This document shows positions 4,519-64,000 of a DNA stretch of 64,000 nucleotides, piece after piece (position 1 is the first letter of the stretch; each line of letters starts with the position of its first letter). The notes under the pieces were generated by a model. That model saw only the letters and a program-made list of their open reading frames with translations, was not told where the DNA came from and made no database searches. Both the position numbers and the translations under genes were made by a program. Source of the stretch: a virus. The stretch is taken from UHGV virus genome UHGV-0286546; one strand, given 5' to 3'.

Positions 4519-5139
4519 ATGCTCAAATTTCTTAAATCCATTGTGGAATATTTAAAACATGCTGTTTGGTTAATACCTGTTACTTTATCTGCTATTTTAT
4601 GTATGTACTTTATGAATCTTTTTCAGCGTATAGATGAAGCACAGTTACGCAGACAAATTGATGAAAGAGATAGTATTATAGAAATTACCAAGTTCATTAA
4701 AACGAAAGATACTTTATACGCATATTTAGATATTATAGATAGATTCGAAGATAATAATTTATATCTATTGGATAATAAGTTAGAATTATTACCAGATAAG
4801 AGACATACCAGACATTGTTATTATTCGATGTATAGTGTAACTCCTCCGTTTGAAATAGAAAAATTTAGACAGGAGATGTTAAAAAACAAGGTTGGTACAT
4901 TTGATCATAAAATAGTCCCAGGTATAAAAATTAATTTTCAATATCGTCATATACGTGCAGACAATAAAGAATATATTTTATTAGCCGGCGTTCATAATTA
5001 CGTTAAATTACCAGAAGAAGAAGAATTATATTTTGCGATTGGTTTACTTTTACTTTTTACAGCCGTTTGCAATCTTATTATTGTTATTTATGCAAAGCAC
5101 ATGAGATATTTGTGTCATCTGGAAAATGATAAAGAATAA
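4519..5139 (+). CDS. membrane protein (N- and C-terminal TM helices)
   Basis: Two hydrophobic segments (LIPVTLSAILCMYFMNLF; IGLLLLFTAVCNLIIVIYA); precedes lysis-like genes. Confidence 0.5.
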   Translation: MLKFLKSIVEYLKHAVWLIPVTLSAILCMYFMNLFQRIDEAQLRRQIDERDSIIEITKFIKTKDTLYAYLDIIDRFEDNNLYLLDNKLELLPDKRHTRHCYYSMYSVTPPFEIEKFRQEMLKNKVGTFDHKIVPGIKINFQYRHIRADNKEYILLAGVHNYVKLPEEEELYFAIGLLLLFTAVCNLIIVIYAKHMRYLCHLENDKE

Positions 5140-5477: not shown

Positions 5478-5792
5478 ATGATAGCGAATAAAGCGAGTCT
5501 TATTACTATTGCCGTTTCTATTTTGGCTGCAGTTATATTTTTTATGCTTTGGCAAATTTCACAAGATAATTTAAAGAATACAAGAGAAAAATTGTGTGAT
5601 GCAAATAATACTATTCAGACATTAAAAAATGATAACGATAAATTACTTGTATATATTCAAACAAAAGATCAAGAAATTAAAAAAATCGAAAAAGAATATA
5701 TAAATAAATTAAATAATATTCCAAAAGATAATTGTGGTGATACTAAACCTTCAAAAGAATTACTTGATTATTTAAAACAGAATGCACAATGA
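5478..5792 (+). CDS. i-spanin-like protein (N-terminal TM anchor + coiled coil)
   Basis: Single N-terminal TM (SLITIAVSILAAVIFFMLW) followed by K/E/L-rich helical region; overlaps downstream lipoprotein gene by 4 nt. Confidence 0.5.
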   Translation: MIANKASLITIAVSILAAVIFFMLWQISQDNLKNTREKLCDANNTIQTLKNDNDKLLVYIQTKDQEIKKIEKEYINKLNNIPKDNCGDTKPSKELLDYLKQNAQ

Positions 5793-6034
5793 AAATATTA
5801 TGTAGAATTTTAGGATTGTTGATATTTTTCTTATTTTTGTTCAGTATGCTTTTTGGGTGTACTTCTACAACGCAGGTAAATGTATCTACAAACAATTTAG
5901 TACAAACAGATTATGATTATCAATGTTTAGATAGTACTAAAACTTTTACACAAATTATAGTTTGTTATCAAGCTCAAGATAAAGCAGAAAAAGTCCAAAA
6001 CAAGATAACAAACGAATTACTTAAAAATAAATAA
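5789..6034 (+). CDS. o-spanin-like outer-membrane lipoprotein
   Basis: Signal peptide with lipobox LFGC (MKILCRILGLLIFFLFLFSMLFGC); ATGA overlap with i-spanin-like gene. Confidence 0.5.
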   Translation: MKILCRILGLLIFFLFLFSMLFGCTSTTQVNVSTNNLVQTDYDYQCLDSTKTFTQIIVCYQAQDKAEKVQNKITNELLKNK

Positions 6035-6035
6035 A

Positions 6036-6070
6036 AATAAAGGCTCGTTTTTTGACCGTACACGAGCCTT
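6036..6070. terminator. bidirectional intrinsic terminator between convergent + and - gene blocks
   Basis: Hairpin AAAGGCTCGT-tttttgaccgtac-ACGAGCCTTTT flanked by A/T runs on both sides. Confidence 0.7.
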
Positions 6071-6093
6071 TTAATTTAATCTTAAGAGTTTCT

Positions 6094-6972
6094 CTAGAAA
6101 GTTAATTTAGCTACACACATGACCAATTTTTCGGCATCTGTGTCATTGTCTTCTAATGCGATAGCAACTACTTTTCTAAAATCATACCATTTTTTAACAC
6201 AACCGACTCCGGCAATCTTACTGAGTACAATTTTATCAAACTTTTTAACTTTACCAACAACTCTTACTTTTACTTTGCCGACGAGAGCAATACTTTGACC
6301 TTTGCTTTTCGAATTTAAAATAAAACCTGGTTTTTCAGAAATTACACCATTCACTTCTTTATCAGCTATAGTTATTTCTTTTTCACCACCGAATTTAATC
6401 AATGTACCAACTGGATATTTTTCATCACTAAGATATTTTTCGGCTAAGTCTGCATATCGAGCTTGAGTTGCAACACCATTAAAGATGGGTGCGGTAATAG
6501 TACCTGGAAATTGACTATCACCAGCTTCATTCATCAATGTAATTTGTTTATCTAAGCTGTTTGTACCCGCATTTATAGTAGTATTTGAAGTATAACCAAG
6601 TAATAATTTATCTTGATAGGTGTTTAATGTGAATTTACCATTTGTACTATTCGTTTTAATAGCTGTAACATAAGCGCCGTTTGCAGCTTTTGAGTTTAAT
6701 ATAGCGGTGCCTTGGTTACCATTCAAATACGTATTTGTTAAAATATCAGTATTCAAACGATCAACTTCAATAGTATCTGGTAAAGGTTGCCAAATAAGCT
6801 TACTACCATCTGTATATAAGTAACTTCCAGCTTTTCCTGCAATCTCAGAAATTACACCGCCGATCGTTAAAGTACCTTCGGCTGTAACGTCTAAATCTTC
6901 TCCGATGATAACACCGCCTTTTTTAGTAGTGGTTGCAGGAGGTAAAACACTGTCTATAATTCTAATTGCCAT
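6094..6972 (-). CDS. tail fiber protein (292 aa) with N-terminal TTTKKGGVIIG fiber motif
   Basis: N-terminal ATTTKKGGVIIGEDL resembles A(S/T)xTxxG(I/V)VxL motif of phage fiber proteins; T/N/G-rich beta composition. Confidence 0.55.
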   Translation of the reverse strand: MAIRIIDSVLPPATTTKKGGVIIGEDLDVTAEGTLTIGGVISEIAGKAGSYLYTDGSKLIWQPLPDTIEVDRLNTDILTNTYLNGNQGTAILNSKAANGAYVTAIKTNSTNGKFTLNTYQDKLLLGYTSNTTINAGTNSLDKQITLMNEAGDSQFPGTITAPIFNGVATQARYADLAEKYLSDEKYPVGTLIKFGGEKEITIADKEVNGVISEKPGFILNSKSKGQSIALVGKVKVRVVGKVKKFDKIVLSKIAGVGCVKKWYDFRKVVAIALEDNDTDAEKLVMCVAKLTF

Positions 6973-7862: not shown

Positions 7863-8168
7863 TTATTCCTTTGGATATTTCTTTTTTATTTGATTAATAG
7901 TGTTAAACCAGACATTTGTACCTTTAACTTTATCCCAATACAACATGTCTAATTGATCTTCTAAACTTGGGTATTCTGCCAATCTCGCTGCAATAGCTTT
8001 TTCTGCTTTTACTTTTGATTCTAAAACATACTGATTGTTTACAAATACATAGTTTTCATTCGTTTTAATTATTTCGTCAAAGATAATAAATGGAATATTT
8101 TCTAATTCTTCTTTTGTTTTAGCTACTGCGATTATCTTATTGTCTTTATATGCTAAGTACTGACTCAT
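7863..8168 (-). CDS. hypothetical protein (101 aa), possible fiber assembly factor
   Basis: Small ORF overlapping neighbours by 4 nt inside fiber gene block. Confidence 0.45.
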   Translation of the reverse strand: MSQYLAYKDNKIIAVAKTKEELENIPFIIFDEIIKTNENYVFVNNQYVLESKVKAEKAIAARLAEYPSLEDQLDMLYWDKVKGTNVWFNTINQIKKKYPKE

Positions 8169-8731
8169 TCAAATTTATCTCCTTTAACGTATAAGAAATT
8201 TACAGTCTCACCAGCAAAAGTATATTCAATCTTTAATTCATCGTCTTTTAATACGGGAATAAACAGCGAATACATTGAATGAGCACGCGTAGATACACAA
8301 TGCTGATAAATAGTATTCATTATTTTACTGTGTACTGAAATGTATTGACCGAGTGAAGTACAATATTTATTCAGTAAGATATATCCATTTTCAGGAATTT
8401 TATAAGTAGAACCAGATGCAAATAATTGTAAAGAGACTGTACTTATTCCATTTTTTGTGGATTCTGCTTCGATTTCATTCCATTTTAGTATTCCGTCAGA
8501 GGCTTCTAATAAATGGCATCCAGACTGTGGCACTCTTGGAAGAAGACCTTGTAAAGTTTCATATATTTTAGATGACGACCAAGTTTTATCTTTATATAAA
8601 CCAGAATCTTCAAGTAAATCTATAACTTCACAATCGTCTGTGATAATATATGTAATGTCGTCATCGTGTTTTGACAATGCATTATATTCAGCTAATGTAC
8701 CCTTCCACAACTTTTCTTTTTTCGTTGTCAT
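8165..8731 (-). CDS. hypothetical structural protein (188 aa)
   Basis: ORF in fiber block, 4-nt overlaps both sides. Confidence 0.45.
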   Translation of the reverse strand: MTTKKEKLWKGTLAEYNALSKHDDDITYIITDDCEVIDLLEDSGLYKDKTWSSSKIYETLQGLLPRVPQSGCHLLEASDGILKWNEIEAESTKNGISTVSLQLFASGSTYKIPENGYILLNKYCTSLGQYISVHSKIMNTIYQHCVSTRAHSMYSLFIPVLKDDELKIEYTFAGETVNFLYVKGDKFE

Positions 8732-11527: not shown

Positions 11528-12436
11528 TTAAACTTCGAATTTACATTTATCAGGAAACATACTATTTAAGAATTGGTTAAGTCTAGGATATTGTCTATTA
11601 TTACCAACTGTATCATCAAAAACACTCAACCAATCTTCTTGTAACCAAGCGTCAGTTAGATCCTGATTTAATGTTATTTTTACATCGTTAATTTTTCTAG
11701 GTTTTCCTAATCCTTCGTCTGGGTATAAGTTTTTGTAGACACTACGTTTGTGTAATACTTTTGGAGTTTGACAAAATTCTTTAATACAAGATAATTTCAT
11801 CATTTGATTAAAATTAGCTTTATTTATAATAATAGGAAGATGTGATTCGTAATTATAATGACTACGACAATCTAATTTATTTAACAATTCGACTGCATAA
11901 TCAAAGCCATACTTCCAACGAGATTTTTTTATATTGTTTGCGTTTCTTTTTACTTCGGCATCTAATGTACCAAGACAAACATTTAATGCTTCATACCAGT
12001 TTCTAATTGGCTTTAATGCGAAGAAATCATCATTCATTAATACAAAATTATCAGATATTTCCTGGCAATTACAAGCAGCTAAATAATTTGTAATGCTATT
12101 TTTCCACTTGTCTTGATTCTGGATAGTCGGAATATAACGAACATTTTTAATCCAACTAGGCTTATATCCAATAATCCAAATACGTTTAAAATTACAGAAT
12201 TTAGCAATAGAACGTAAAGACATCCGTATATCTGGATTATTTTCACTTGCTTTTAAAATATATACTAAATCTAATTCTAAATCTGGTTTGTATATTTCAG
12301 TCGTTAAACATGGATTTAAGAAAGATCTTGCCTTTTCTGATAAAACATTGTGTGGGTAACTTATTTTCTGTTTATCAGCCCACTCTTTTGTATGTAACCA
12401 CGGCTGAGTAACAATCTTCCTTTTTGATTCTACCAT
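11528..12436 (-). CDS. hypothetical protein (302 aa), possible glycosyltransferase-like (NDD motif)
   Basis: ORF with strong coding signal; W/K/N-rich; LMNDDFF DxD-like motif; no confident family assignment. Confidence 0.5.
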   Translation of the reverse strand: MVESKRKIVTQPWLHTKEWADKQKISYPHNVLSEKARSFLNPCLTTEIYKPDLELDLVYILKASENNPDIRMSLRSIAKFCNFKRIWIIGYKPSWIKNVRYIPTIQNQDKWKNSITNYLAACNCQEISDNFVLMNDDFFALKPIRNWYEALNVCLGTLDAEVKRNANNIKKSRWKYGFDYAVELLNKLDCRSHYNYESHLPIIINKANFNQMMKLSCIKEFCQTPKVLHKRSVYKNLYPDEGLGKPRKINDVKITLNQDLTDAWLQEDWLSVFDDTVGNNRQYPRLNQFLNSMFPDKCKFEV

Positions 12437-12830: not shown

Positions 12831-13720
12831 TATGCGATTATTCTCTTCTTTGGATTGTTTCCACCAAAAGCAGAATGACGAACAGACCAACCAATTTCTT
12901 TTTCGCCATTGTATTCTAACTTCTTAAGATACTGAATTACATCAAATAATTTTTCTTTTGCAGCAATCGAATAAACATTTTCCATGACATTCTCAATACT
13001 AGAGATGTCAGAATCGATGTCGCCTTTGAAATCATTTTTTCTATCAGTAATCGGATCATTGGAAGCAATAATAGCATTTTCAATTTGATCTATTTTTGAA
13101 TCAGATATATTAAAATAATTTCGTAATTCAATCAAAGCTCTATCGACTTCATCAGCAAGCATTTCATCTTCATAAAAACCAAATACTTTTTCTAAGATTT
13201 CGTACTGTTTATCGTTTAAACCTAAAGTATCTGCTATAATTTGACATACAGTATAATTATCATATGTACGATTTTGCTGTACTGCTTCTGTTAATACTTG
13301 CACTGATTCTTTTACTTCTTCTTTGTCTTTGGTCTCAACTTCGTCTTTATCTTGATCTTCTTTATTTTCTGTATTATCAAGAGACTGTTCTTCGCCAGAG
13401 TCTGCTTCTTTAACACCTGCTTCATAAGCTTTTTTCATTTCTGGAACTTCGCTTATTTTAGATGTTAATTGAGCCAGATGTTTCATTTCTTCATCACGTA
13501 CATCTACTAATACGTCATGAAAAAGATCAACTAATTCTTTTCTGGTAACATTATCTTCTAACGATAAAATTTGATCGTATTCGCTGTATGCTTTAGATTC
13601 AGAAGCAATCGCACCTAAAATCGCCTGGCAATAAGCTTCATCGTTTGACAAATCAACATCATTTGTTTCTAATGGATTTGCTTCTGCTTCAACCAATCTC
13701 TTTTTTGGAATAATACGCAT
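12830..13720 (-). CDS. acidic hypothetical protein (296 aa)
   Basis: D/E-rich helical composition. Confidence 0.5.
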   Translation of the reverse strand: MRIIPKKRLVEAEANPLETNDVDLSNDEAYCQAILGAIASESKAYSEYDQILSLEDNVTRKELVDLFHDVLVDVRDEEMKHLAQLTSKISEVPEMKKAYEAGVKEADSGEEQSLDNTENKEDQDKDEVETKDKEEVKESVQVLTEAVQQNRTYDNYTVCQIIADTLGLNDKQYEILEKVFGFYEDEMLADEVDRALIELRNYFNISDSKIDQIENAIIASNDPITDRKNDFKGDIDSDISSIENVMENVYSIAAKEKLFDVIQYLKKLEYNGEKEIGWSVRHSAFGGNNPKKRIIA

Positions 13721-25228: not shown

Positions 25229-25624
25229 ATGATGAAAAGAATTACTACAGCAAAAGAAACCGTTTTAGATTTATTAGAAAAAGGAAAGCTAATAAATCTT
25301 GTTGAATTACGCACCGGTAAAAACAATTCGGGATCTGGAATAAACAAGATTAACCAGTTACGAACAATCTGTAAATACTTTGATATACCTTTAGAAAATT
25401 ATGTACGTTATTGTAATACAAGTAAATTACGTAATCGTCGTAATTTTTTTATTTTTTTAAACTATCTAAAACGAAATAACATTCAATATATCTATGCAGA
25501 AAAAGTTTTATATTTTCCTGTAGAATCAGAAATTGCAGACATTCTAAGAGTATATAATAACAATTGGAATGCAGTATATGATTCTATCGTAGATTGTCAT
25601 TTGGCCGAGAAAGAAAGTAAATAG
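25229..25624 (+). CDS. hypothetical protein (131 aa)
   Basis: ORF; downstream gene starts 1 nt after stop. Confidence 0.5.
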   Translation: MMKRITTAKETVLDLLEKGKLINLVELRTGKNNSGSGINKINQLRTICKYFDIPLENYVRYCNTSKLRNRRNFFIFLNYLKRNNIQYIYAEKVLYFPVESEIADILRVYNNNWNAVYDSIVDCHLAEKESK

Positions 25625-28737: not shown

Positions 28738-28800
28738 TTTTAGGTAGGAACAGCAATACATAACAAACTCAAACTTGAACTTTGACAGAATACTACCTAG
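28738..28800 (+). repeat. tRNA-trailer hairpin element, copy 1 (TTTTAGGTAGG...ACAGCAAT...ACTACCTAG); contains perfect TTGACA
   Basis: Second copy at 29098..29166, also immediately 3' of a tRNA; TAGGTAG/CTACCTA stem enclosing ~50 nt. Confidence 0.5.
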
Positions 28801-29097: not shown

Positions 29098-29166
29098 TTT
29101 AGGTAGGTACAGCAATCAATTTCGCTTTGTAGCACCAGACTTTTAATCTGTTATAAAACTACCTAG
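29098..29166 (+). repeat. tRNA-trailer hairpin element, copy 2
   Basis: Shares TTTTAGGTAGGTACAGCAAT ... AACTACCTAG with copy 1. Confidence 0.5.
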
Positions 29167-30062: not shown

Positions 30063-30548
30063 ATGAAAATATACACAGACGCCAGTACAAGAAGTAATCT
30101 TTCAGGTTTAGCGTTTATAGTTACTGATGCGAAGAACAAAGTGCAATGTAGAAGAGCGTCTGTTGTAGAAGAAAAAGATAATAACACTGCAGAATTGAGA
30201 GCAATATGTTATGCATTGGCGTATACTAAGTCTGTTGATGAGCCTGTTGTATTAATGACAGATTCAACATATGCGATACAGGCGATAAGAGGTGGATATC
30301 ATAGACCTAATGAAGAAAAATTAATAAACTATATTCATGCTCATATGAAAAATAGAAAGTGTAATATATTTTGGGTGAAAGGACATAACAAAGATGGTAC
30401 TGTCCTTTCTTATTTTAATAAAGAAGCAGATAAGTTAGCAAAACACGTTAGAAAAGAATATGAATATAGTGTAGCTAAACAAAAGAAAATAGATAAACAA
30501 AAAAGATTAGAAGCTGCATTGGTATCTAAGAAAGGAAAAAATAGATGA
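30063..30548 (+). CDS. ribonuclease H (RNase HI-like, 161 aa)
   Basis: Catalytic DEDD pattern: IYTDAST, TAELRAICYAL, LMTDSTYAIQ, WVKGHNKDGTVLSYFNKEADKLAKH. Confidence 0.75.
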   Translation: MKIYTDASTRSNLSGLAFIVTDAKNKVQCRRASVVEEKDNNTAELRAICYALAYTKSVDEPVVLMTDSTYAIQAIRGGYHRPNEEKLINYIHAHMKNRKCNIFWVKGHNKDGTVLSYFNKEADKLAKHVRKEYEYSVAKQKKIDKQKRLEAALVSKKGKNR

Positions 30549-31123
30549 GGACCATAGACTTTTATACAGTTAAAGAAAGTGGTGCAAATATAAATAGAGT
30601 TATATATCATGTTGAAAATTCTGATATTGCTCTTATTAGTGCTTTTCGTTCTGATTCTTCGAAAAAACAAAATTTAGAAAATAATAAAAGATTAGCATTA
30701 GATATACATAATATTGGATTATCGTATATAAAAGTTACTGGTAATTATAAAGAAGAAAATAATTCAGAATTTACAACCGAAGATAGTTTTATAGTAATTC
30801 ATCGTCCAGAATCAAATAAAGCACAAGATGAATTTTTTGAAGAAATGCTTGGATTATGTAGAAAATATAATCAAGATGCAGTATTAATTAGTTTAAAAAA
30901 TCGAAAAGATGTCCCTATTGCTTCGTATGATAGTAATGGAAAAATTGTATATGGTCCATTTACTAAACTTACACTGAGTAATATAGAAGATTTTTATACT
31001 AGAATCCATAATCATAGGTTTAAATTTGAAAGCATTGTAGAATCAGAAGAAGGTATAAAACCGAGCGGATATTCAAATGCCATGCGATATTATGGAACAA
31101 AAGCTTTATTAAAATTAAAATAG
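30545..31123 (+). CDS. hypothetical protein (192 aa); leaderless paralog of 31592..32329
   Basis: Shares FFEEMLGLCRKYNQDAVLISL block with 31592..32329 (FKEEMLALGRKYNQETILLKL). Confidence 0.55.
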   Translation: MRTIDFYTVKESGANINRVIYHVENSDIALISAFRSDSSKKQNLENNKRLALDIHNIGLSYIKVTGNYKEENNSEFTTEDSFIVIHRPESNKAQDEFFEEMLGLCRKYNQDAVLISLKNRKDVPIASYDSNGKIVYGPFTKLTLSNIEDFYTRIHNHRFKFESIVESEEGIKPSGYSNAMRYYGTKALLKLK

Positions 31124-31591: not shown

Positions 31592-32329
31592 ATGTCAAAA
31601 TTTAAAGAAGTAGTAGAAAATGCTTTAAAAGAAAGAGGATTTTCTTTACAAAAACTAACAAATAATCTTGAGATAGATAGTCCGATATGTACGTGTTTTA
31701 TAACTGCATATTTAGAAACAAATGACAAGGAAACAAATATTGCTAATAACAACAAATTAGAATTAAATATTGTATCTCTCGGTTATGAATACGGTTATAA
31801 AAAAATCCTTGGTGGATATGTTTATTCAAATGGAACTTTTGCTAAAGAGCCTGGATTTTTAGTATCTTGTAAAAGAACTAATGTATTACCTGAAGATTTT
31901 AAAGAAGAAATGTTAGCTCTTGGCAGGAAATACAATCAAGAAACTATTTTACTAAAGTTACCAGGAGAAAAACCAGCTTACTATAATACCAGAGGTAATA
32001 AAATAGATGAAAAGGATATTGAATTCGCCTTTACAAAGCAGGTAGATCCAACAAAACCGAAAACACTTTATCCAAATGAAATTACAGCTTGGAGTAAAGG
32101 ATATACTCAATTACAAAAAGATGCAAACAAAGGTAAAAATCAAGCTATTGAATTGACCAATGAAAACTCTTCTGTTTTTGAATCGTTGATATTGACTGAT
32201 GAAGAAATCAATGAATTAAAAGAAGATACCAGAGAAAAATGTTTTTGTAGTGGCTCTGGGATATTAAGAATGGCTGCCTGTAGAGAACATTTGGGTTTAG
32301 AACCTTATCCTTGTCTCAAAAAGCGGTAA
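31592..32329 (+). CDS. member of MS(K/R)F(K/R)TIVEN-leader paralog family (245 aa)
   Basis: N-terminus MSKFKEVVENAL; body homologous to 30545..31123. Confidence 0.6.
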   Translation: MSKFKEVVENALKERGFSLQKLTNNLEIDSPICTCFITAYLETNDKETNIANNNKLELNIVSLGYEYGYKKILGGYVYSNGTFAKEPGFLVSCKRTNVLPEDFKEEMLALGRKYNQETILLKLPGEKPAYYNTRGNKIDEKDIEFAFTKQVDPTKPKTLYPNEITAWSKGYTQLQKDANKGKNQAIELTNENSSVFESLILTDEEINELKEDTREKCFCSGSGILRMAACREHLGLEPYPCLKKR

Positions 32330-32345
32330 TTTGAAAGTGTTTAAA

Positions 32346-32954
32346 ATGTCAAGCTTTAGAGAAATAGTAAATACTATTTTGAAGTCAGCTTTACTTGGTA
32401 AAAATCCTAATGTTGAATCATTAGCTATTATTACAGCTGAAGATTCCTTTGGTAAAAAAATTAACAGAAGAGACAATGCTACTCGATTGAAAGTTTTTAA
32501 GATACAATTGAAGCTAGGAGGTCATCCTTATGAAAACATTGTTGATAAATATGGAAATAAAGAGCATTCTTTTGTAATTTTTAATTTATCAAGATCTGCT
32601 GCTAAAAATTATGCAAAAGTATATGAGCAAGAATCGTTTATTTTTGGCATAAAGAATAAAGATGACATGTTATATGAATATTGGGAAACTGTAGATAATG
32701 GTAAAACTTATAATTTATCTAAAACTACAGATTTTATAAGAAATGAGCCAGAATTAGAAGATTATTTTTCTAGATTACATGATTATAAATTTAATATAGG
32801 CTTTGATTTTAATGAATCTATCGACGAAGAAACTGTAAGAAAATTAGAATCTATTACGACTCCAGAAGATAAGAAATGGATTAAAGAATATATTAATGAA
32901 GAACGTGTAGGTATGGCTTCTTATTTACATTATAAAAAGTTGTATAAAAATTAA
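32346..32954 (+). CDS. member of MSxFxxIVxN-leader paralog family (start at second ATG: MSSFREIVNTIL)
   Basis: Internal Met gives family-consensus N-terminus. Confidence 0.5.
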   Translation: MSSFREIVNTILKSALLGKNPNVESLAIITAEDSFGKKINRRDNATRLKVFKIQLKLGGHPYENIVDKYGNKEHSFVIFNLSRSAAKNYAKVYEQESFIFGIKNKDDMLYEYWETVDNGKTYNLSKTTDFIRNEPELEDYFSRLHDYKFNIGFDFNESIDEETVRKLESITTPEDKKWIKEYINEERVGMASYLHYKKLYKN

Positions 32955-33603: not shown

Positions 33604-33723
33604 GAGAGGGTAGCTCAGTCTGGTAGAGCAACGTAAAAAAGTATTTAGTATTTAAGTACGTTCAGCAACATATATTTTTGGTTGGTAACCCGTGTGTCGT
33701 AGGTTCAAATCCTACCCCTCTCA
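33604..33723 (+). tRNA. tRNA-like element with ~46-nt insertion replacing a canonical anticodon arm (intron-containing, disrupted or repurposed tRNA)
   Basis: Perfect acceptor GAGAGGG/CCCTCTC, canonical D-arm GCTCAGTCTGGTAGAGC and T-arm GTAGG-TTCAAAT-CCTAC, but 68 nt (33631..33698) between them with no foldable 17-nt anticodon arm; no encoded CCA. Confidence 0.45.
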
Positions 33724-34355
33724 ACAAGTTTTGGTTTGTTAGTTTAGATAGGCTATAATTAAAGTAAGTAAGTTTGGAAGTTACGACACAGACCAAATAA
33801 CCTATCGTTTCCAAATTATCTTTATCGTTGTCGTGAAGGATAAAGAGTGAAAAACTAACGTTAAAGTGACAAAAAGTATACTTAATTATCCAAAGTATTG
33901 CCAATATCACTTGAATTTATGGGTGTCGTGTTTTCGAAAGAGCATGAAGGTCAGGGTCAATCCCAAAAGAGTCACGAACGTGGATTTCATATTTTACCTC
34001 CACCTGCCCATAATTTTTTATGCTCCGTCGTAGTCTTGGTGACCACTAGTTGAATGTCTATAGCTCCAGTCAATTAGTATGGGAATACTGTTCGAATCAG
34101 TTACGGGGTACCAATTTTTATGAGTAGTTTATTAGTTCTTCTCGCCTTGGAAAATTGAACTAGTGAATAGTCATCTTGTAATGGTAAACATTCTTGACTG
34201 AAACTAAAGAAAAGTTTATATGTTTATTAGAGTAATATGGTAAGCCGCGGCTGAGACTTATAAGGGTAAGTAGATATATAGATGTAATGAAAGTTTTACC
34301 ACAGTATAAAGATTAGTAATATGAAGAAAGAATTAAATGACGCGAGGATAAAATA

Positions 34356-34562: not shown

Positions 34563-34650
34563 GGAGGAATGGCAGAGTGGCTTAATGCAGCGGTTTACTA
34601 AACCGTCGTACCGAAAGGTGCCGTGGGTTCAAATCCTACTTCCTCCGCCA
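34563..34650 (+). tRNA. class II tRNA (88 nt, Ser-like architecture) with non-canonical anticodon loop TTACTAA (ACT by standard register)
   Basis: Acceptor GGAGGAA/TTCCTCC, anticodon arm (G)CGGT-TTACTAA-ACCG(T), variable-arm hairpin GTACC-GAAA-GGTGC, T-arm GTGGG-TTCAAAT-CCTAC, CCA encoded. Confidence 0.5.
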
Positions 34651-34657
34651 ATTTATT

Positions 34658-34751
34658 AGGTCTGTCGTTCAATGGTTAGGACACTAGGCTTATACCCTAG
34701 CGAGCGTCTGATTAACGCGAAATCCCAGTTCGAGTCTGGGCGGACCTACCA
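34658..34751 (+). tRNA. 94-nt tRNA-like gene: anticodon arm CTAGG-CTTATAC-CCTAG (TAT) followed by a 23-nt extra arm that itself looks like an anticodon stem-loop (GCGT-CTGATTA-ACGC)
   Basis: Acceptor AGGTCTG/CGGACCT, D-arm GTTC-AATGGTTA-GGAC, T-arm CCCAG-TTCGAGT-CTGGG, CCA encoded. Confidence 0.45.
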
Positions 34752-34776
34752 GTTTTAAATAAGAAAGGAAGTATAA

Positions 34777-34971
34777 ATGAGCACACGTCAAGAATATAAT
34801 AAAAAAATTTTAGCACATATTTCTGAAAAAATAGACCAGTGTTCAGATATGCGTTTTGTACAAATTCTGTGGGCATTGAGAATTGATGATGGACAAGATA
34901 ATTTCTACGAAGAATCGAAAGAAACGTTAGAAAAAGTAGAAAACAATCTAAAGAAAATTAATAACGAATAA
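34777..34971 (+). CDS. small hypothetical protein (64 aa)
   Basis: ORF with RBS AAGGAAG. Confidence 0.5.
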   Translation: MSTRQEYNKKILAHISEKIDQCSDMRFVQILWALRIDDGQDNFYEESKETLEKVENNLKKINNE

Positions 34972-35046
34972 TATTATTTCCGGTTTTACAATATTTTTAA
35001 CAAGACATATATTTGTTTATAGATTAACAGAAAAAAGGAAGTGGAT

Positions 35047-36531
35047 ATGTCTGATAATAAAACAATGACTGAAAAAGGTGCTATTACTAATCAATCTACA
35101 TTAGACAAAGTTGTAGATTGGTTTTATCATGGAGCCGCATTACGTAGAGAAAAAAACAAAGACCGTATTATAGCTTTGTTTGATGATGCTTTTAAACAGG
35201 ATAAAACCAAAGCATTGCGTATTTTATTTTATATTCGTGATATTCGTGGTGGTCAAGGTGAAAGACGCATTTTTAGAATTTGCTTAAATCATTTGGCAAA
35301 AATAGAATCTGCTTGGTTAAAAGACAATTTGGCATTAATTGCTGAATACGGCAGATATGATGATTATTTGTGCTTGCTTGATACAGAAATTAAAAGTGCT
35401 GTAATTGATTTCGTTAAAGCACAATTAGATAAAGATATTGCTGCAATAGATAGCAATACACCTATTTCATTGCTTGCCAAATGGATGCCTTCCGTTACAA
35501 CCAAGAATAAAGAAAAAAGAAGATATTTAAATGCTCTTTTGAATTCTGGTAAATTTGGCACAGTAAAAAATTATAGACAAACGTTATCTAAACTTCGTGA
35601 TAAATTAAATATTGTTGAAAAGAATCTTTGCAATAAAGCCTTTGCTGAAATTGAATATTCTAAAGTTTCTTCTAATGCAATGTCTAAGTATTCAAAAACT
35701 AGAATTTCATCTGGATTAGCTGGTACTTTTTGGCGCAATGACTTAGATAGATTTAAAATGTATTTAGACGCTGTTAAAAACGGTAAAACAATCGACGGCA
35801 AAGAAGTAAAAATAAATGCAAAAACCTTATATCCATATGATGTTATTACAAAATATATGAGTGGTTATAGTATAAGTCATCAAGAAGATCCTGCAGCGGA
35901 AGCTCAATGGAATGCTTTACCTGATTATGTACCAGAGATTAACGGCATTGTAATTTATGATACTTCGGGTTCAATGTATGGATTACCTATGGCTGTATCT
36001 TTGTCGTTGGCTATTTATATTGCTGAAAGAAATAAATCAGAAGTTTGGCGTAATTATGTTATTCCATTCTCATCTAATGCGACTTGGAAAAAAGTAAAGG
36101 GTAACAATTTAGTAGAAAAAATTGAATCTATTTATACTGGAGATTGTTCAAATACTAATTTACAAGCAGCCTTTGATCTTATTTTAGGTAAAGCTATATA
36201 TGCGCAAGTACCTAAAGAAGATATGCCAAAACAGCTGATTATTATTAGTGATATGGAATTTGATTCGGTTTCTTCTAATAACCAAACTAATTATGAAGCT
36301 ATAAAAAGCAAATATAAGAAAGCTGGTTATGACTTACCACAATTAATCTGGTGGAACGTTGAATCAAGAAGCAATCAAACACCGATTACAGTAAATGATA
36401 AAAATTGTTTATTGCTTTCTGGCTGTTCACCGGTAGTTATGCAAGTAGCTTTGGGTGGTTCATACGATTTTATGGAAGCAATCGATAAAATTATTAACCA
36501 AGAACGTTATAGTTGCATCAATTATAATTAG
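35047..36531 (+). CDS. von Willebrand factor A (vWA) domain protein with DUF2828/TROVE-like N-terminal region
   Basis: MIDAS motif IVIYDTSGSMYG; N-terminal ALRILFYIRDIRGGQGERRIF block reminiscent of DUF2828-type proteins (uncertain); ATG at 35047 preferred over GTG at 35041. Confidence 0.6.
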   Translation: MSDNKTMTEKGAITNQSTLDKVVDWFYHGAALRREKNKDRIIALFDDAFKQDKTKALRILFYIRDIRGGQGERRIFRICLNHLAKIESAWLKDNLALIAEYGRYDDYLCLLDTEIKSAVIDFVKAQLDKDIAAIDSNTPISLLAKWMPSVTTKNKEKRRYLNALLNSGKFGTVKNYRQTLSKLRDKLNIVEKNLCNKAFAEIEYSKVSSNAMSKYSKTRISSGLAGTFWRNDLDRFKMYLDAVKNGKTIDGKEVKINAKTLYPYDVITKYMSGYSISHQEDPAAEAQWNALPDYVPEINGIVIYDTSGSMYGLPMAVSLSLAIYIAERNKSEVWRNYVIPFSSNATWKKVKGNNLVEKIESIYTGDCSNTNLQAAFDLILGKAIYAQVPKEDMPKQLIIISDMEFDSVSSNNQTNYEAIKSKYKKAGYDLPQLIWWNVESRSNQTPITVNDKNCLLLSGCSPVVMQVALGGSYDFMEAIDKIINQERYSCINYN

Positions 36532-36650
36532 TTCTTAATAACTATTAAAGACTGTGAAAAACGTACAGCAATCTATAAAATATTTTATATTGAAGACTTG
36601 CTGTGTTTTAACAGCATGATAAGGTATTAATTTCGGTTAATACCTGTTTA

Positions 36651-36715
36651 TAAGGAAGGGCCGAAACAAAAGTTTTTCGTTAAAAGACAGTCTTTACGGT
36701 CCTTCCTTTTTTTTA
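36651..36715 (+). terminator. long hairpin + T8 terminator after vWA gene
   Basis: AAGGAAGGGCCG...CGGTCCTTCCTTTTTTTT. Confidence 0.6.
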
Positions 36716-38042: not shown

Positions 38043-38600
38043 TTGTTGAGTTATAACAGATTAAAAAATTTTAGAAAATTACGAAAACTAGCTATATTAC
38101 AAGGATTTGGCGGAAAATGTCAATGTTGTGGTTATAACAAATGCGTTCAAGCTTTAGAATTTCATCATTTAAATTGTAATGATAAAGAATTTTCTATTAG
38201 TACCATTATGAATAAAAACTGGAACGAAATAAAAAATGAATTAAAAAAATGTATTTGTGTGTGTGCCAATTGTCATAGAGAAATACACAATAATTTATTA
38301 GAAATTGATGTTAATAAACAATATTTTGACGAAAACGCCGTACAAGATTATGAATGTGCTATAAATAAGGTAACAAAATATAGCAAATGTCCAATTTGCG
38401 GAGCATTAAAACCAGAATATAACAAATTTTGTTCTCGAAAATGTGCCGCGAAATCAAGAGATAGAGTAAATTGGGAACAATACGAAAGTTTAGTTTATAT
38501 TATTGATAATAAAATTGAATCTATTAATAGTATTGCTTCTAAATTAAATATTTCTTGGCAAGCTGTAAAGAAAAGATATAAAAAATTAAAATCGCAATAA
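38043..38600 (+). CDS. HNH homing endonuclease (185 aa, TTG start with AGGGAG RBS) inserted inside tRNA operon
   Basis: CQCCGYNKCVQALEFHHLNCN ... CANCHREIHNN = HNH/zinc-binding signature. Confidence 0.7.
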   Translation: MLSYNRLKNFRKLRKLAILQGFGGKCQCCGYNKCVQALEFHHLNCNDKEFSISTIMNKNWNEIKNELKKCICVCANCHREIHNNLLEIDVNKQYFDENAVQDYECAINKVTKYSKCPICGALKPEYNKFCSRKCAAKSRDRVNWEQYESLVYIIDNKIESINSIASKLNISWQAVKKRYKKLKSQ

Positions 38601-62975: not shown

Positions 62976-64000
62976 ATGGTTAAGAATGTACAAGATAAAT
63001 TGCTGATGCCGGAATTCACGATTGATACAGTTGTTAATGATAGTGGTATCGAAATTCCTGGTATCAAAAGAATGTATGATATTGCATTGGCTATTGGTGA
63101 TTCATTGATGCAGTGGGGTGGTCCAGGATGTGGTAAGTCTCAGTCAGTACAGCAGTGGAATGCAGATAAAGTTGCTGAGTATGAAAAACGTATGGCTGAA
63201 GGTGAAAAAGTAAAACCTTGGAATCCGGTCGTTTGTGATGTTCGTTTGTCTATGAAAGAGCCAGTTGATATGGTTGGTGTTCCTATTCCGACTAAAGATG
63301 AAAAAGGTAACATGACAACTGTTTGGGCAACTCCTTCGATGTGGCCTAAGAATGATGGTGAATTCGCTGGTGGTGTTATTCACTTGGATGAAATGAATCA
63401 GGGTCAAGCTGCTATTCTGAATGCTGCCTTCCAGTTGATTCAAGACCGTGCTTTGGGAGAATACAAAGTACCTGAAGGTTATATCATTATTGGTTCATCT
63501 AACCCGTCTGCATATAACTCTACTGTTACTGAGTTTTCTGTACCATTGTCAAACAGATTTAGTCACTTCAATGTTAAACCTGACTTCGATTCTTGGTTGA
63601 ACTACAGAATGAATAACGGTGGTAACTTGGATGTTATGACCTTCTTAAAGACACAGGGTATGAATATGTTGTTTGATAAAGAAGGTATGGAAGCCAAAGT
63701 TGGTAGTCTTGCCGATGCTATGTATACAGATATTGTTATCACTCCTCGCTCTTGGGAAGTAATTGAAAAAGTATTAGCGCTTCCTGATGGTAATAAAGCA
63801 ACTGGTGGATTTACAATAGATGAAAAACAAAGATATGCAACCGGTCGTTTAGGTCTTGCTATTGCTTCCAGACTGTTTACTTGGTTGAAAGATAAAGCTA
63901 AATATCAAGACTGGAGAGAAATCCTTATCGATGGTAAAGACTTTAAAGATGAAAACAGTGAACAATTCTGGGCTGTTCAGATGGCATGTATGAATGCAAT
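62976..64000 (+). CDS. AAA+ ATPase, AAA_5/MoxR-CobS-like (3'-truncated at window end; not in supplied track)
   Basis: Walker A GGPGCGKS, Walker B VIHLDEMNQ, sensor ...SSNPSAY...NRFSHF; preceded by AACCCAACC motif and AGGAG RBS. Confidence 0.7.
   Translation, partial: MVKNVQDKLLMPEFTIDTVVNDSGIEIPGIKRMYDIALAIGDSLMQWGGPGCGKSQSVQQWNADKVAEYEKRMAEGEKVKPWNPVVCDVRLSMKEPVDMVGVPIPTKDEKGNMTTVWATPSMWPKNDGEFAGGVIHLDEMNQGQAAILNAAFQLIQDRALGEYKVPEGYIIIGSSNPSAYNSTVTEFSVPLSNRFSHFNVKPDFDSWLNYRMNNGGNLDVMTFLKTQGMNMLFDKEGMEAKVGSLADAMYTDIVITPRSWEVIEKVLALPDGNKATGGFTIDEKQRYATGRLGLAIASRLFTWLKDKAKYQDWREILIDGKDFKDENSEQFWAVQMACMNA

Follow-up and report, generated by a model that had tools for sequence, protein, structure and literature searches.

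The gene at 35047..36531 and its product

The window analysed here is a stretch of 64,000 nucleotides (nt) from the virus genome UHGV-0286546. The subjects of this work are the gene at 35047..36531 of the window and a family of small RNAs, called ACAGCAA RNAs after a motif they share, which are encoded near this gene and its relatives. As shown in Table 1, where the coordinates of the features are collected, the gene lies on the forward strand, and it sits within a region of 20 tRNA genes; it belongs to a jumbo phage. The sequence AAGGAAG was found 7 nt 5' of its ATG, and an alternative GTG start is present at 35041.

A preliminary description of this DNA, made from the sequence alone, had assigned to the open reading frame (ORF) a C-terminal vWA domain with the MIDAS motif DTSGS and a TROVE/DUF2828-like N-terminus. 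The motif given for the N-terminus, LRILFYIRDIRGGQGERRIF, and DTSGS were both confirmed, at residues 57-76 and 305-309 of the 494 amino acids (aa), respectively. In the alignment of 40 family sequences, D305, T306, S307, G308, S309, T370 and D402 were invariant and form a complete MIDAS signature (DxSxS...T...D), and the GGQGER block was likewise invariant. In Pfam, DUF7788 (PF25043) matched residues 299-474 (8.6e-40, 136.8 bits, cut-off 27.1), DUF2828 (PF11443) matched the window protein with 7.9e-31 and 107.7 bits (cut-off 29), and VWA and VWA_2 were matched by other members. In PHROGs, phrog_850, labelled 'RNA-binding protein', matched the full length at 2e-115.

Scoring of 8,000 candidates gave 7,972 relatives at E<=1e-5, and 711 cultured phage records matched the DUF2828 protein. 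Cultured carriers included Felixounavirus (homologs with about 34% identity to the window protein), cluster L mycobacteriophages (about 36%) and Herelleviridae of Listeria (P100-like), Staphylococcus (Twort-like) and Enterococcus, as well as Campylobacter phages, KVP40-like vibriophages, Bacillus Tsamsa-like phages and one Lak megaphage. The closest relatives, in loci L081 to L085 (the loci compared carry L numbers), are contigs from phages of about 240 kilobases (kb) whose proteins are 60-67% identical to that of the window. No near-identical DNA was found in cultured phages. The window protein has a 99% identical counterpart on the 12.2-kb contig L221 (JBJFGR010000076.1), which was binned in a Succinivibrionaceae metagenome-assembled genome (MAG) and indicates either the host or a mis-binned phage contig. 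From this contig, the host of the window phage is probably a gut or rumen Gammaproteobacterium.

In the predicted fold, an alpha-helical repeat ring would be closed by the vWA domain. In the fold comparison, the N-terminal 300 residues resembled the Ro60 ring and not the N-terminus of CobT or NorD, and the closest structural neighbours of the vWA part alone were the MIDAS domains of midasin and NorD. The window protein is predicted to be a phage Ro60-like ring, with TROVE-like helical repeats closed by the vWA/MIDAS domain. Of the N-terminus proposed in the preliminary description, the DUF2828 part therefore holds for the sequence, but the TROVE part holds for the predicted fold and not for the sequence.

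The preliminary description had also raised a different partner for the protein, a CobS/MoxR ATPase in a chelatase-like complex unrelated to RNA. The rival considered here is that the vWA/MIDAS protein forms an RNA-free chaperone-like or chelatase-like machine with a MoxR/CobS-type AAA+ ATPase. Midasin and NorD, the nearest vWA-only neighbours, work with AAA+ ATPases, a weak CobT_C match was obtained for 15 of the 40 members (best E 0.021), and a fragment of a MoxR-like ATPase does start at 62976, as had been noted. However, this ATPase lies 26 kb from the gene, and it is distributed differently among phages. Its relatives occur in phages, including N4-like and jumbo phages, with the annotation MoxR or AAA-ATPase, and its 652 phage matches come mostly from Escherichia, Pseudomonas and Klebsiella phages, which show little overlap with the carriers of DUF2828. 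Mycobacterium, Listeria, Staphylococcus, Enterococcus and Bacillus are outside its ten commonest genera, yet they contribute many of the 711 DUF2828 records. Furthermore, no AAA_5 gene was present in the neighbourhoods examined, and the predicted N-terminal fold matches the Ro60 ring. We regard the ATPase pairing as very improbable.

The Ro60/Y-RNA idea is sound, but annotations and one preprint have already brought it forward for the DUF2828/PHROG 850 family. SEA-PHAGES annotators label the homologs of cluster L mycobacteriophages 'Ro-like RNA binding protein', and LeBron gp53, which is tied to the family by this annotation, was toxic on overexpression (PMC13148394). For Bas63 gp130, whose gene lies directly upstream of the tRNA genes of that phage, a Ro60-like structure and activity against the Ppl defence have been reported, together with the authors' speculation that there are Y RNAs among these tRNAs (PhageMaP preprint, 2024, PMC11482910). 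Judged via the other Felixounavirus homologs, Bas63 gp130 probably belongs to the same protein family as the window protein. No partner RNA for the DUF2828/PHROG 850 family was defined in the literature searched, which did not extend to subscription journals.

Architecture and covariation of the ACAGCAA RNA

The motif AAAAAC(A/G)UACAGCAA(U) was found 19-33 nt past the stop codon of the gene in the window, L081, L082 and L084, and at +268 nt in L083. The relaxed form NNNN-ACAGCAA-W was present near the gene in most unrelated viral loci, with 151 matches on the gene's strand and 27 on the other strand. These matches share the layout 5'-WWAGRYNNN(N)-ACAGCAA(U/A/C)-[25-100 nt]-N'N'N'RYCUWG-3', in which the two ends pair as a helix, P1, of 7-8 base pairs (bp) with the consensus 5'-WWAGRYNNN / NNNRYCUWG-3', and the unit closes with ...CU(A/U)G. 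ACAGCAA is invariant and, in the proposed structure, single-stranded; G is nearly absent from the 7 nt that come after it. The 3' strand of P1 is preceded by an A-rich stretch, and the A two nt 5' of this strand is conserved in 82%.

P1 was paired in 88.7% of cells in 38 hand-collected units and in 29-51% when the partner columns were slid. All 8 pairs covaried, with 65 double-change cells as compared with 4-9 in the slid controls. In a second, independent set of 50 units, for which an 18-nt pattern was the sole criterion in the choice of loci, P1 was 93.6% paired and showed 76 double changes. G-U cells outnumbered A-C cells by 10 to 3, which is weak evidence for pairing at the RNA level on the gene's strand. 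A general phage promoter was also considered as an explanation of the motif and was rejected because the exact 13-mer occurs a single time in the 64-kb window and because the P1 flanks covary. In Rfam 15, no family was found at the positions of the units, except that versions embedded in tRNAs scored as 'tRNA' with an insertion of about 45 nt.

Linkage of the RNA to the gene

The covariance model R1 was built from the 38 units and run with cmsearch over 1.39 Mb on both strands at E<=1. It gave 160 matches, all on the strand of the DUF2828 gene and none inside the gene, and no match was obtained in 8 unrelated control loci. At least one match was present in 65 of 74 DUF2828 loci and one within 700 nt of the gene in 61 of 74. 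Within 700 nt of the gene lay 123 of the 160 matches (55 up to 300 nt upstream, 59 up to 700 nt downstream), and tandem runs of 2-5 units were frequent. In 65 bacterial and MAG contigs, 56 matches were obtained at E<=0.1, again all on the gene's strand.

In a reverse test, the pattern TTAGACNNNNACAGCAAT was used to collect 80 viral loci, which were then checked with R1. A validated unit was present in 22 of the 80 loci, and DUF2828 was encoded on the same strand beside the unit in 17 of the 22; four of the remaining five were cut at the locus end. Only one of the 58 unvalidated loci contained the gene, and the unit there was cut at the locus start. Furthermore, cultured phages of Bacillus, Listeria, Escherichia, Campylobacter, Staphylococcus and Mycobacterium carry units that flank the gene (examples in Table 1). 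The ACAGCAA RNA is a candidate partner RNA family that is new relative to Rfam 15 and the literature searched, as are the three architectures described below and the almost universal linkage of the family to the gene.

The linkage could also arise if the elements served phage tRNA arrays in general, as punctuation or as signals for processing, and lay near the gene only through a shared tRNA region. A tRNA was present within 10 kb of the gene in 62 of 82 loci and within 1 kb in 33 of 82, and a tRNA 3' end immediately precedes many of the units. However, gene and units also occur together in loci that lack a tRNA within 10 kb, such as L003, L016, L031, L050, L053, L060, L068 and L077, and JoeDirt has no tRNA in the 9.4-kb stretch examined. 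The matches gather within 700 nt of the gene and not along the arrays; in large arrays, such as that of L005 with 29 tRNAs, units were found only beside the gene or at few sites. The reverse test, moreover, recovers the gene from the RNA. We give this explanation very little credence.

Within the annotated phage genomes, the 45-aa ORF140 of CP81 (L219 2843-2980) is covered nearly completely by two units and has no PHROG match; it is probably spurious and not a gene.

Units of the window

The two strong units of the window lie among tRNA genes. Unit 1 is located between tRNA-Met (ends 28737) and tRNA-Leu (starts 28817), and unit 2, with an ortholog at 2707-2776 of L081, between tRNA-Glu (ends 29087) and tRNA-Ala (starts 29177). 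Both units are bracketed by tRNA genes, so ordinary tRNA processing could release them. The core of unit 2 resembles the anticodon arm of tRNA-Lys(UUU), and its likeness to tRNAs of the window was also seen as repeat family D13. The window is among the few loci whose strong units lie beyond 700 nt of the gene.

Directly past the stop codon, a conserved element contains the motif and a terminator-like stem of 12 bp (36652-36663 with 36698-36709), whose inner part, GUUUUUCGUUAAAA, is conserved; a U-run follows the stem. Between the window and its relatives, the outer pairs of this stem covary and the inner GUUUUUYGUWAAAA is conserved. R1 scored 28.3 and 22.8 bits on the orthologs of the element in L084 and L081, respectively. 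The element contains a divergent copy of the ACAGCAA RNA, which scores weakly with R1.

tRNA-like forms of the RNA and tRNA genes of the window

The core between the P1 strands took three forms. The first is a minimal unit of 50-70 nt with a hairpin core. A stem of at least 4 bp with a 7-nt loop was present in 67 of 87 units, as compared with 34 expected from shuffles, and the anticodon-loop signature (U at loop position 2, purine at 6) in 31 of 87, as compared with 8 expected; many of the loops read CU-NNN-AA. In the second form, the core consists of a permuted T-arm, an acceptor hairpin and a D-arm. Within unit L073 8105-8214, the Rfam YrlA model matched positions 8137-8201 with 47.2 bits (cut-off 69) and E 1.5e-7. 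This match spans only model positions 23-86, the tRNA-like core, and the Ro-binding stem of YrlA is replaced by P1/ACAGCAA. In the third form, a complete tRNA-like gene is interrupted, between its D arm and its anticodon hairpin, by a capped P1 helix with ACAGCAA behind it.

Three tRNA-like RNAs at 33604, 34563 and 34658 had been named in the preliminary description as possible partners of the protein. The gene at 33604 is real, and it is the only one of the three with the module, but in the window this module is permuted. Its insertion, between D arm and anticodon hairpin, consists of a capped helix followed by UCAGCAAC. The acceptor and T stems showed compensatory changes across four relatives (alignment, RNAalifold). 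The window copy was called by neither ARAGORN nor Rfam, and the ortholog at L084 3922-4036, with the canonical AAGAUACAC-ACAGCAAU, scored 41.9 bits as tRNA.

The genes at 34563 and 34658 could themselves be regarded as the Y-RNA-like partners, given that both are encoded on the strand of the DUF2828 gene, 296-484 nt 5' of it, and that each is unusual, the first with an A34 Ser anticodon and the second with UAU and a long variable arm. However, both are canonical cloverleafs with a 7-nt anticodon loop and full tRNA scores of 53-54 bits, encode CCA and do not contain the ACAGCAA module. In other phages, genes related to the long-arm tRNA(UAU) lie 0.3-8 kb from the DUF2828 gene on either side. 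Rfam YrlA near the gene reached only 21 bits, a tandem-tRNA artefact of the type described in PMC4201824. It is highly unlikely that these two tRNAs are the partners. The earlier proposal of a ribonucleoprotein module rather than translation components is supported in part: its candidate RNA is the conserved, gene-linked ACAGCAA family, but two of the RNAs on which it was built are bona fide tRNAs.

The tRNA-Ser(ACU) is syntenic in L083 and L084. In all three loci (window 34563-34650, L083 7811-7900, L084 9486-9573), it carries an unmodified-looking A34 in the anticodon ACU, not the usual GCU. The tRNA(UAU) belongs to a recurrent phage tRNA class with anticodon UAU, which reads AUA, and a long variable arm with a covarying stem. 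The 7-nt loop of this arm always contains GAU (consensus YWGAUWD), the anticodon of the major tRNA-Ile. One idea is that the arm might mimic the anticodon arm of tRNA-Ile(GAU) so that IleRS accepts the UAU tRNA. No description of the class was found in the papers searched.

A proposed Ro60/Y-RNA-type particle

We consider it fairly probable that the DUF2828 protein and the ACAGCAA RNAs form a particle of the Ro60/Y-RNA type, in which a ring protein is combined with dedicated neighbouring RNAs. The protein would act as a ribonucleoprotein with the small RNAs encoded beside its gene, and the protein would probably bind at the P1/ACAGCAA junction, the counterpart of the Ro-binding helix in Y RNAs. 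The variable core imitates parts of a tRNA, usually as an anticodon-arm-like hairpin and sometimes as a YrlA-like core, and in other copies the whole module is carried within a tRNA-like gene. Copies between tRNA genes could be freed by RNase P and RNase Z, and other copies belong to the mRNA of the protein itself, as part of its leader or trailer. By analogy with Ro60/Y RNA, the ring would be tethered by the RNA to host tRNA-recognising factors, or the RNA would offer a tRNA-like bait to ribonucleases, anticodon nucleases or repair enzymes, and the outcome would be protected phage translation or countered host defence.

The context fits RNA damage and defence: Bas63 gp130 is reported to counter Ppl, and in the Listeria phage List-36 an HD phosphohydrolase and the RtcB 'tRNA splicing ligase' are encoded 0.6-1.3 kb downstream of the Ro-like gene (L217 5069-7015), a neighbourhood that echoes the rsr-yrlA-rtcBA arrangement. 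A more specific and rather doubtful extension is that the ACAGCAA RNAs are protein-loaded tRNA decoys, in which each unit would display an anticodon-arm mimic, such as that of unit 29099-29166, and would be held by the ring at the P1/ACAGCAA junction. The particle would intercept or inhibit host defence nucleases that target tRNAs, such as PrrC-like anticodon nucleases or whatever Ppl senses, or would pass cleaved tRNAs on to repair enzymes such as RtcB. If this were true, more than 700 cultured phages would share an anti-defence system based on RNA.

Several observations weigh against the Ro60/Y-RNA-type particle. Pfam TROVE (PF05731) did not match the window protein at E<=1 or any of the 40 members at E<=10, and no Ro60 chain in the PDB was found at E<=10 with a single-sequence (phmmer) or a 40-sequence profile search. 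Therefore, the N-terminal 300 residues are TROVE-like in the predicted fold only, and the link to Ro60 is drawn from the fold comparison, since all sequence routes gave nothing. By sequence, the window protein is a member of a family separate from TROVE. The helical ring could be convergent with Ro60. The P1 pair counts favour structure in both alignments, because the 38 seed units were selected for complementarity and the 50-unit alignment was fitted by the model. The anticodon-arm resemblance is limited to about one third of the units. In the window, the strong units lie about 6 kb upstream of the gene, and the copy beside the gene is weak (R1 at 36558-36628, 16.8 bits, E 0.12). The data show the RNA itself, its covariation, its tRNA-likeness and its strand-specific tie to the gene, as well as the likeness of the folds, whereas we infer the binding of the RNA by the protein, the processing of the RNA and its biological role. 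Finally, most units directly precede the ribosome-binding site of the gene, which fits a cis-regulatory leader equally well.

The main rival explanation starts from this last point. The ACAGCAA elements would be cis-acting leaders or trailers that control DUF2828 expression by autogenous repression or attenuation, and not free partner RNAs. The 55 R1 matches within 300 nt upstream of the gene agree with such a role, and several units, as in L014, L071, L077 and L028, end few nt before the Shine-Dalgarno sequence. Phage RNA-binding proteins often autoregulate, which also counts in its favour. However, tandem arrays of 2-5 units are common and 59 matches lie within 700 nt downstream of the gene, distant units are bracketed by tRNA genes (28740 and 29099 in the window, 5711-6336 in EC6), and other copies are carried within full tRNA-like genes or have a YrlA-like core. 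We judge cis-regulation to be unlikely, although it deserves more weight than the ATPase or punctuation explanations. Even under cis-regulation the protein would bind the RNA, so that the pairing of RNA and protein would stand.

The Ro60/Y-RNA-type particle proposed here differs from the systems already described. In 22 phages, a true TROVE Ro60 protein is known to be encoded beside a YrlA RNA (Chen et al. 2014, PMC4201824). Unlike Ro60/Rsr, of which bacterial and mycobacteriophage Rsr with YrlA come closest, the DUF2828 family has no detectable sequence similarity to TROVE or solved Ro60, and P1 and ACAGCAA are unrelated to the GNCGAAN0-1G motif or the Ro-binding helix of YrlA (RF02553). In the window and 19 related loci scanned, no match to Rfam YrlA or Y_RNA was obtained at the gathering score; the place of a Y RNA or YrlA gene, within about 4 kb on the gene's strand, is taken by a different conserved RNA, the ACAGCAA RNA. 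In contrast to YrlA, most ACAGCAA copies are minimal, with only an anticodon-arm-like hairpin in 50-70 nt, and some modules are inserted in complete tRNAs of normal tRNA topology. The Ro60 of the Thermus phage phiLo binds two adjacent Y-like RNAs and host PNPase (PMC12135203). This protein was deposited as TROVE domain-containing (PDB 9l5y) and its RNAs, Yrl1 and Yrl2, are defined by a CGAA motif; single-sequence and profile PDB searches gave no sequence-level match between phiLo Ro60 and the DUF2828 family. In contrast to the proposal for Bas63 gp130, the candidate partners here are a separate conserved RNA family and not the tRNAs. ACAGCAA RNAs were also found in the tRNA array of the Felixounavirus EC6, which begins 165 nt 3' of the Ro-like gene.

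DUF2828/PHROG 850 is among the commoner unexplained genes of large lytic phages, and one probable member was recently reported to counter a bacterial defence. The Ro60-like predicted fold and the near-universal neighbouring RNA turn the vague label 'RNA-binding protein' into a concrete hypothesis. If it is true, the Ro60/Y-RNA principle of a ring with a tRNA-mimicking adaptor RNA would extend to a second, sequence-unrelated family. The ACAGCAA RNA family also accounts for the probably spurious ORF140 of CP81, for a number of intergenic gaps within the tRNA arrays of phages and for some of the 'tRNA genes with odd insertions'.

Table 1. Coordinates of the features in the window and in related loci and phages.
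Feature	Location	Strand	Description
Predicted Ro60-like ring protein gene	35047..36531	+	494 aa from ATG; DUF2828 N-terminal helical domain and DUF7788 vWA domain with complete MIDAS
ACAGCAA unit 1	28740..28800	+	UUAGGUAGGA-ACAGCAAU-...-hairpin, loop CUUGAAC-...-UACUACCUAG; R1 45.8 bits, E 1e-7
ACAGCAA unit 2	29099..29166	+	UUAGGUAGGU-ACAGCAAU-...-CAGA[CUUUUAA]UCUG-...-AACUACCUAG; R1 38.5 bits, E 3e-6
Conserved 3' element	36549..36715	+	Directly past stop; AAAAACGUACAGCAAU, motif 36561-36572, internal hairpins, terminator-like stem, U-run
Doubtful weak covariance-model match	25236..25301	+	24 bits, E 0.29
tRNA-like gene	33604..33735	+	Acceptor, D and T arms; Thr-like GG[UUGGUAA]CC mini anticodon hairpin; insertion of about 60 nt
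tRNA-Ser(ACU), type II	34563..34650	+	ARAGORN; Rfam tRNA 53.9 bits (cut-off 29); CCA encoded, ends ...GCCA
tRNA(UAU), 94 nt, long variable arm	34658..34751	+	ARAGORN; Rfam tRNA 53.0 bits; CCA encoded, ends ...ACCA
Other UAU long-arm tRNAs	L082 6885-6978; L083 8932-9026; L008 8379-8469; L022 1456-1545; L024 11503-11592; L029 7818-7910(-); L033 17477-17568; L044 13449-13536; L065 3137-3231(-); L067 4443-4535(-)		Same class as window 34658-34751
Module within complete tRNA-like gene	L005 11553-11672; L034 11833-11951; L084 3922-4036		L005 and L034 are cyanophage-like loci
Unit, Tsamsa			92 nt upstream of gene (homolog gp247)
Units, List-36			Three tandem units upstream of gene (homolog gp168); one adjacent unit at List-36 103449-103506 = L217 2613-2670
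Units, EC6	L086 5711-5773, 5872-5933, 6267-6336		Three units in downstream tRNA array; L086 5872-5933 = EC6 12267-12328
Units, CP81	L219 2804-2869, 2876-2956		Two units upstream of gene
Units, Staphylococcus phage Alsa_2			Downstream of gene
Units, JoeDirt			Two units in 360-nt gap downstream of gene
Small ORF, 64 aa	34777..34971	+	Just 5' of the Ro60-like gene; syntenic in L081, L084; no PHROG match
Small Cys-rich ORF, 82 aa	36729..36977	+	phrog_30788; just 3' of the Ro60-like gene; position kept in L081, L084
MoxR-like AAA+ ATPase fragment	62976-63998		phrog_1297, 6.7e-52; no Pfam match at E<=0.01

Other elements of the window and of related loci

The gene is flanked by two small ORFs (Table 1). 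A conserved small zinc-finger partner protein was considered and was rejected as a general component because the small ORFs beside the gene fall in different PHROGs in different lineages. In List-36, a small 'RaiA zinc finger' ORF (phrog_1257) is located upstream of the Ro-like gene, and the same ORF is present in Staphylococcus phage Alsa_2.

A non-coding block at 34114-34335 is 90% identical to L084 9191-9412, although the proteins of L084 are only about 60-70% identical. It has counterparts in L082 (6608-6707) and L081 (9351-9423), and every copy begins exactly where a tRNA or tRNA-like gene ends. The block contains a promoter-like TTGACT-17-TATATG site and a 10-nt palindrome, AGCCGCGGCT in the window and AGCTGCAGCT in L084, which is palindromic in both. 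As a partner RNA the block was rejected: a degenerate pattern gave only chance matches in IMG/VR, and the L082 copy lies 4.4 kb downstream of the gene. It was set aside as a separate element because its position relative to the Ro-like gene is not conserved. A further tRNA-like sequence at 34024-34116, conserved at L084 8708-8816, has an acceptor stem, a D arm, a GTTCGAATC T arm, an encoded ACCA and a 16-nt 'anticodon' loop, and was called by neither ARAGORN nor Rfam.

The tRNA region of the window also contains three paralogous S-adenosylmethionine lyase / DUF3293-like genes at 30545-31123, 31592-32329 and 32331-32954, and L081 likewise has three. An HNH homing-endonuclease-like gene was found at 38043-38600 between tRNA-Ile and tRNA-Phe, and the tRNA arrays of relatives carry HNH, LAGLIDADG and T5orf172 genes. 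In L080, a skipping-rope RNA (RF02924, 62 bits) is located inside the phage tRNA array at 13158-13254. In the cyanophage-like contigs L034 and L023, abiF RNAs (RF03085) lie just 5' of large tRNA arrays, at 4821-4857 and 4775-4811, respectively.

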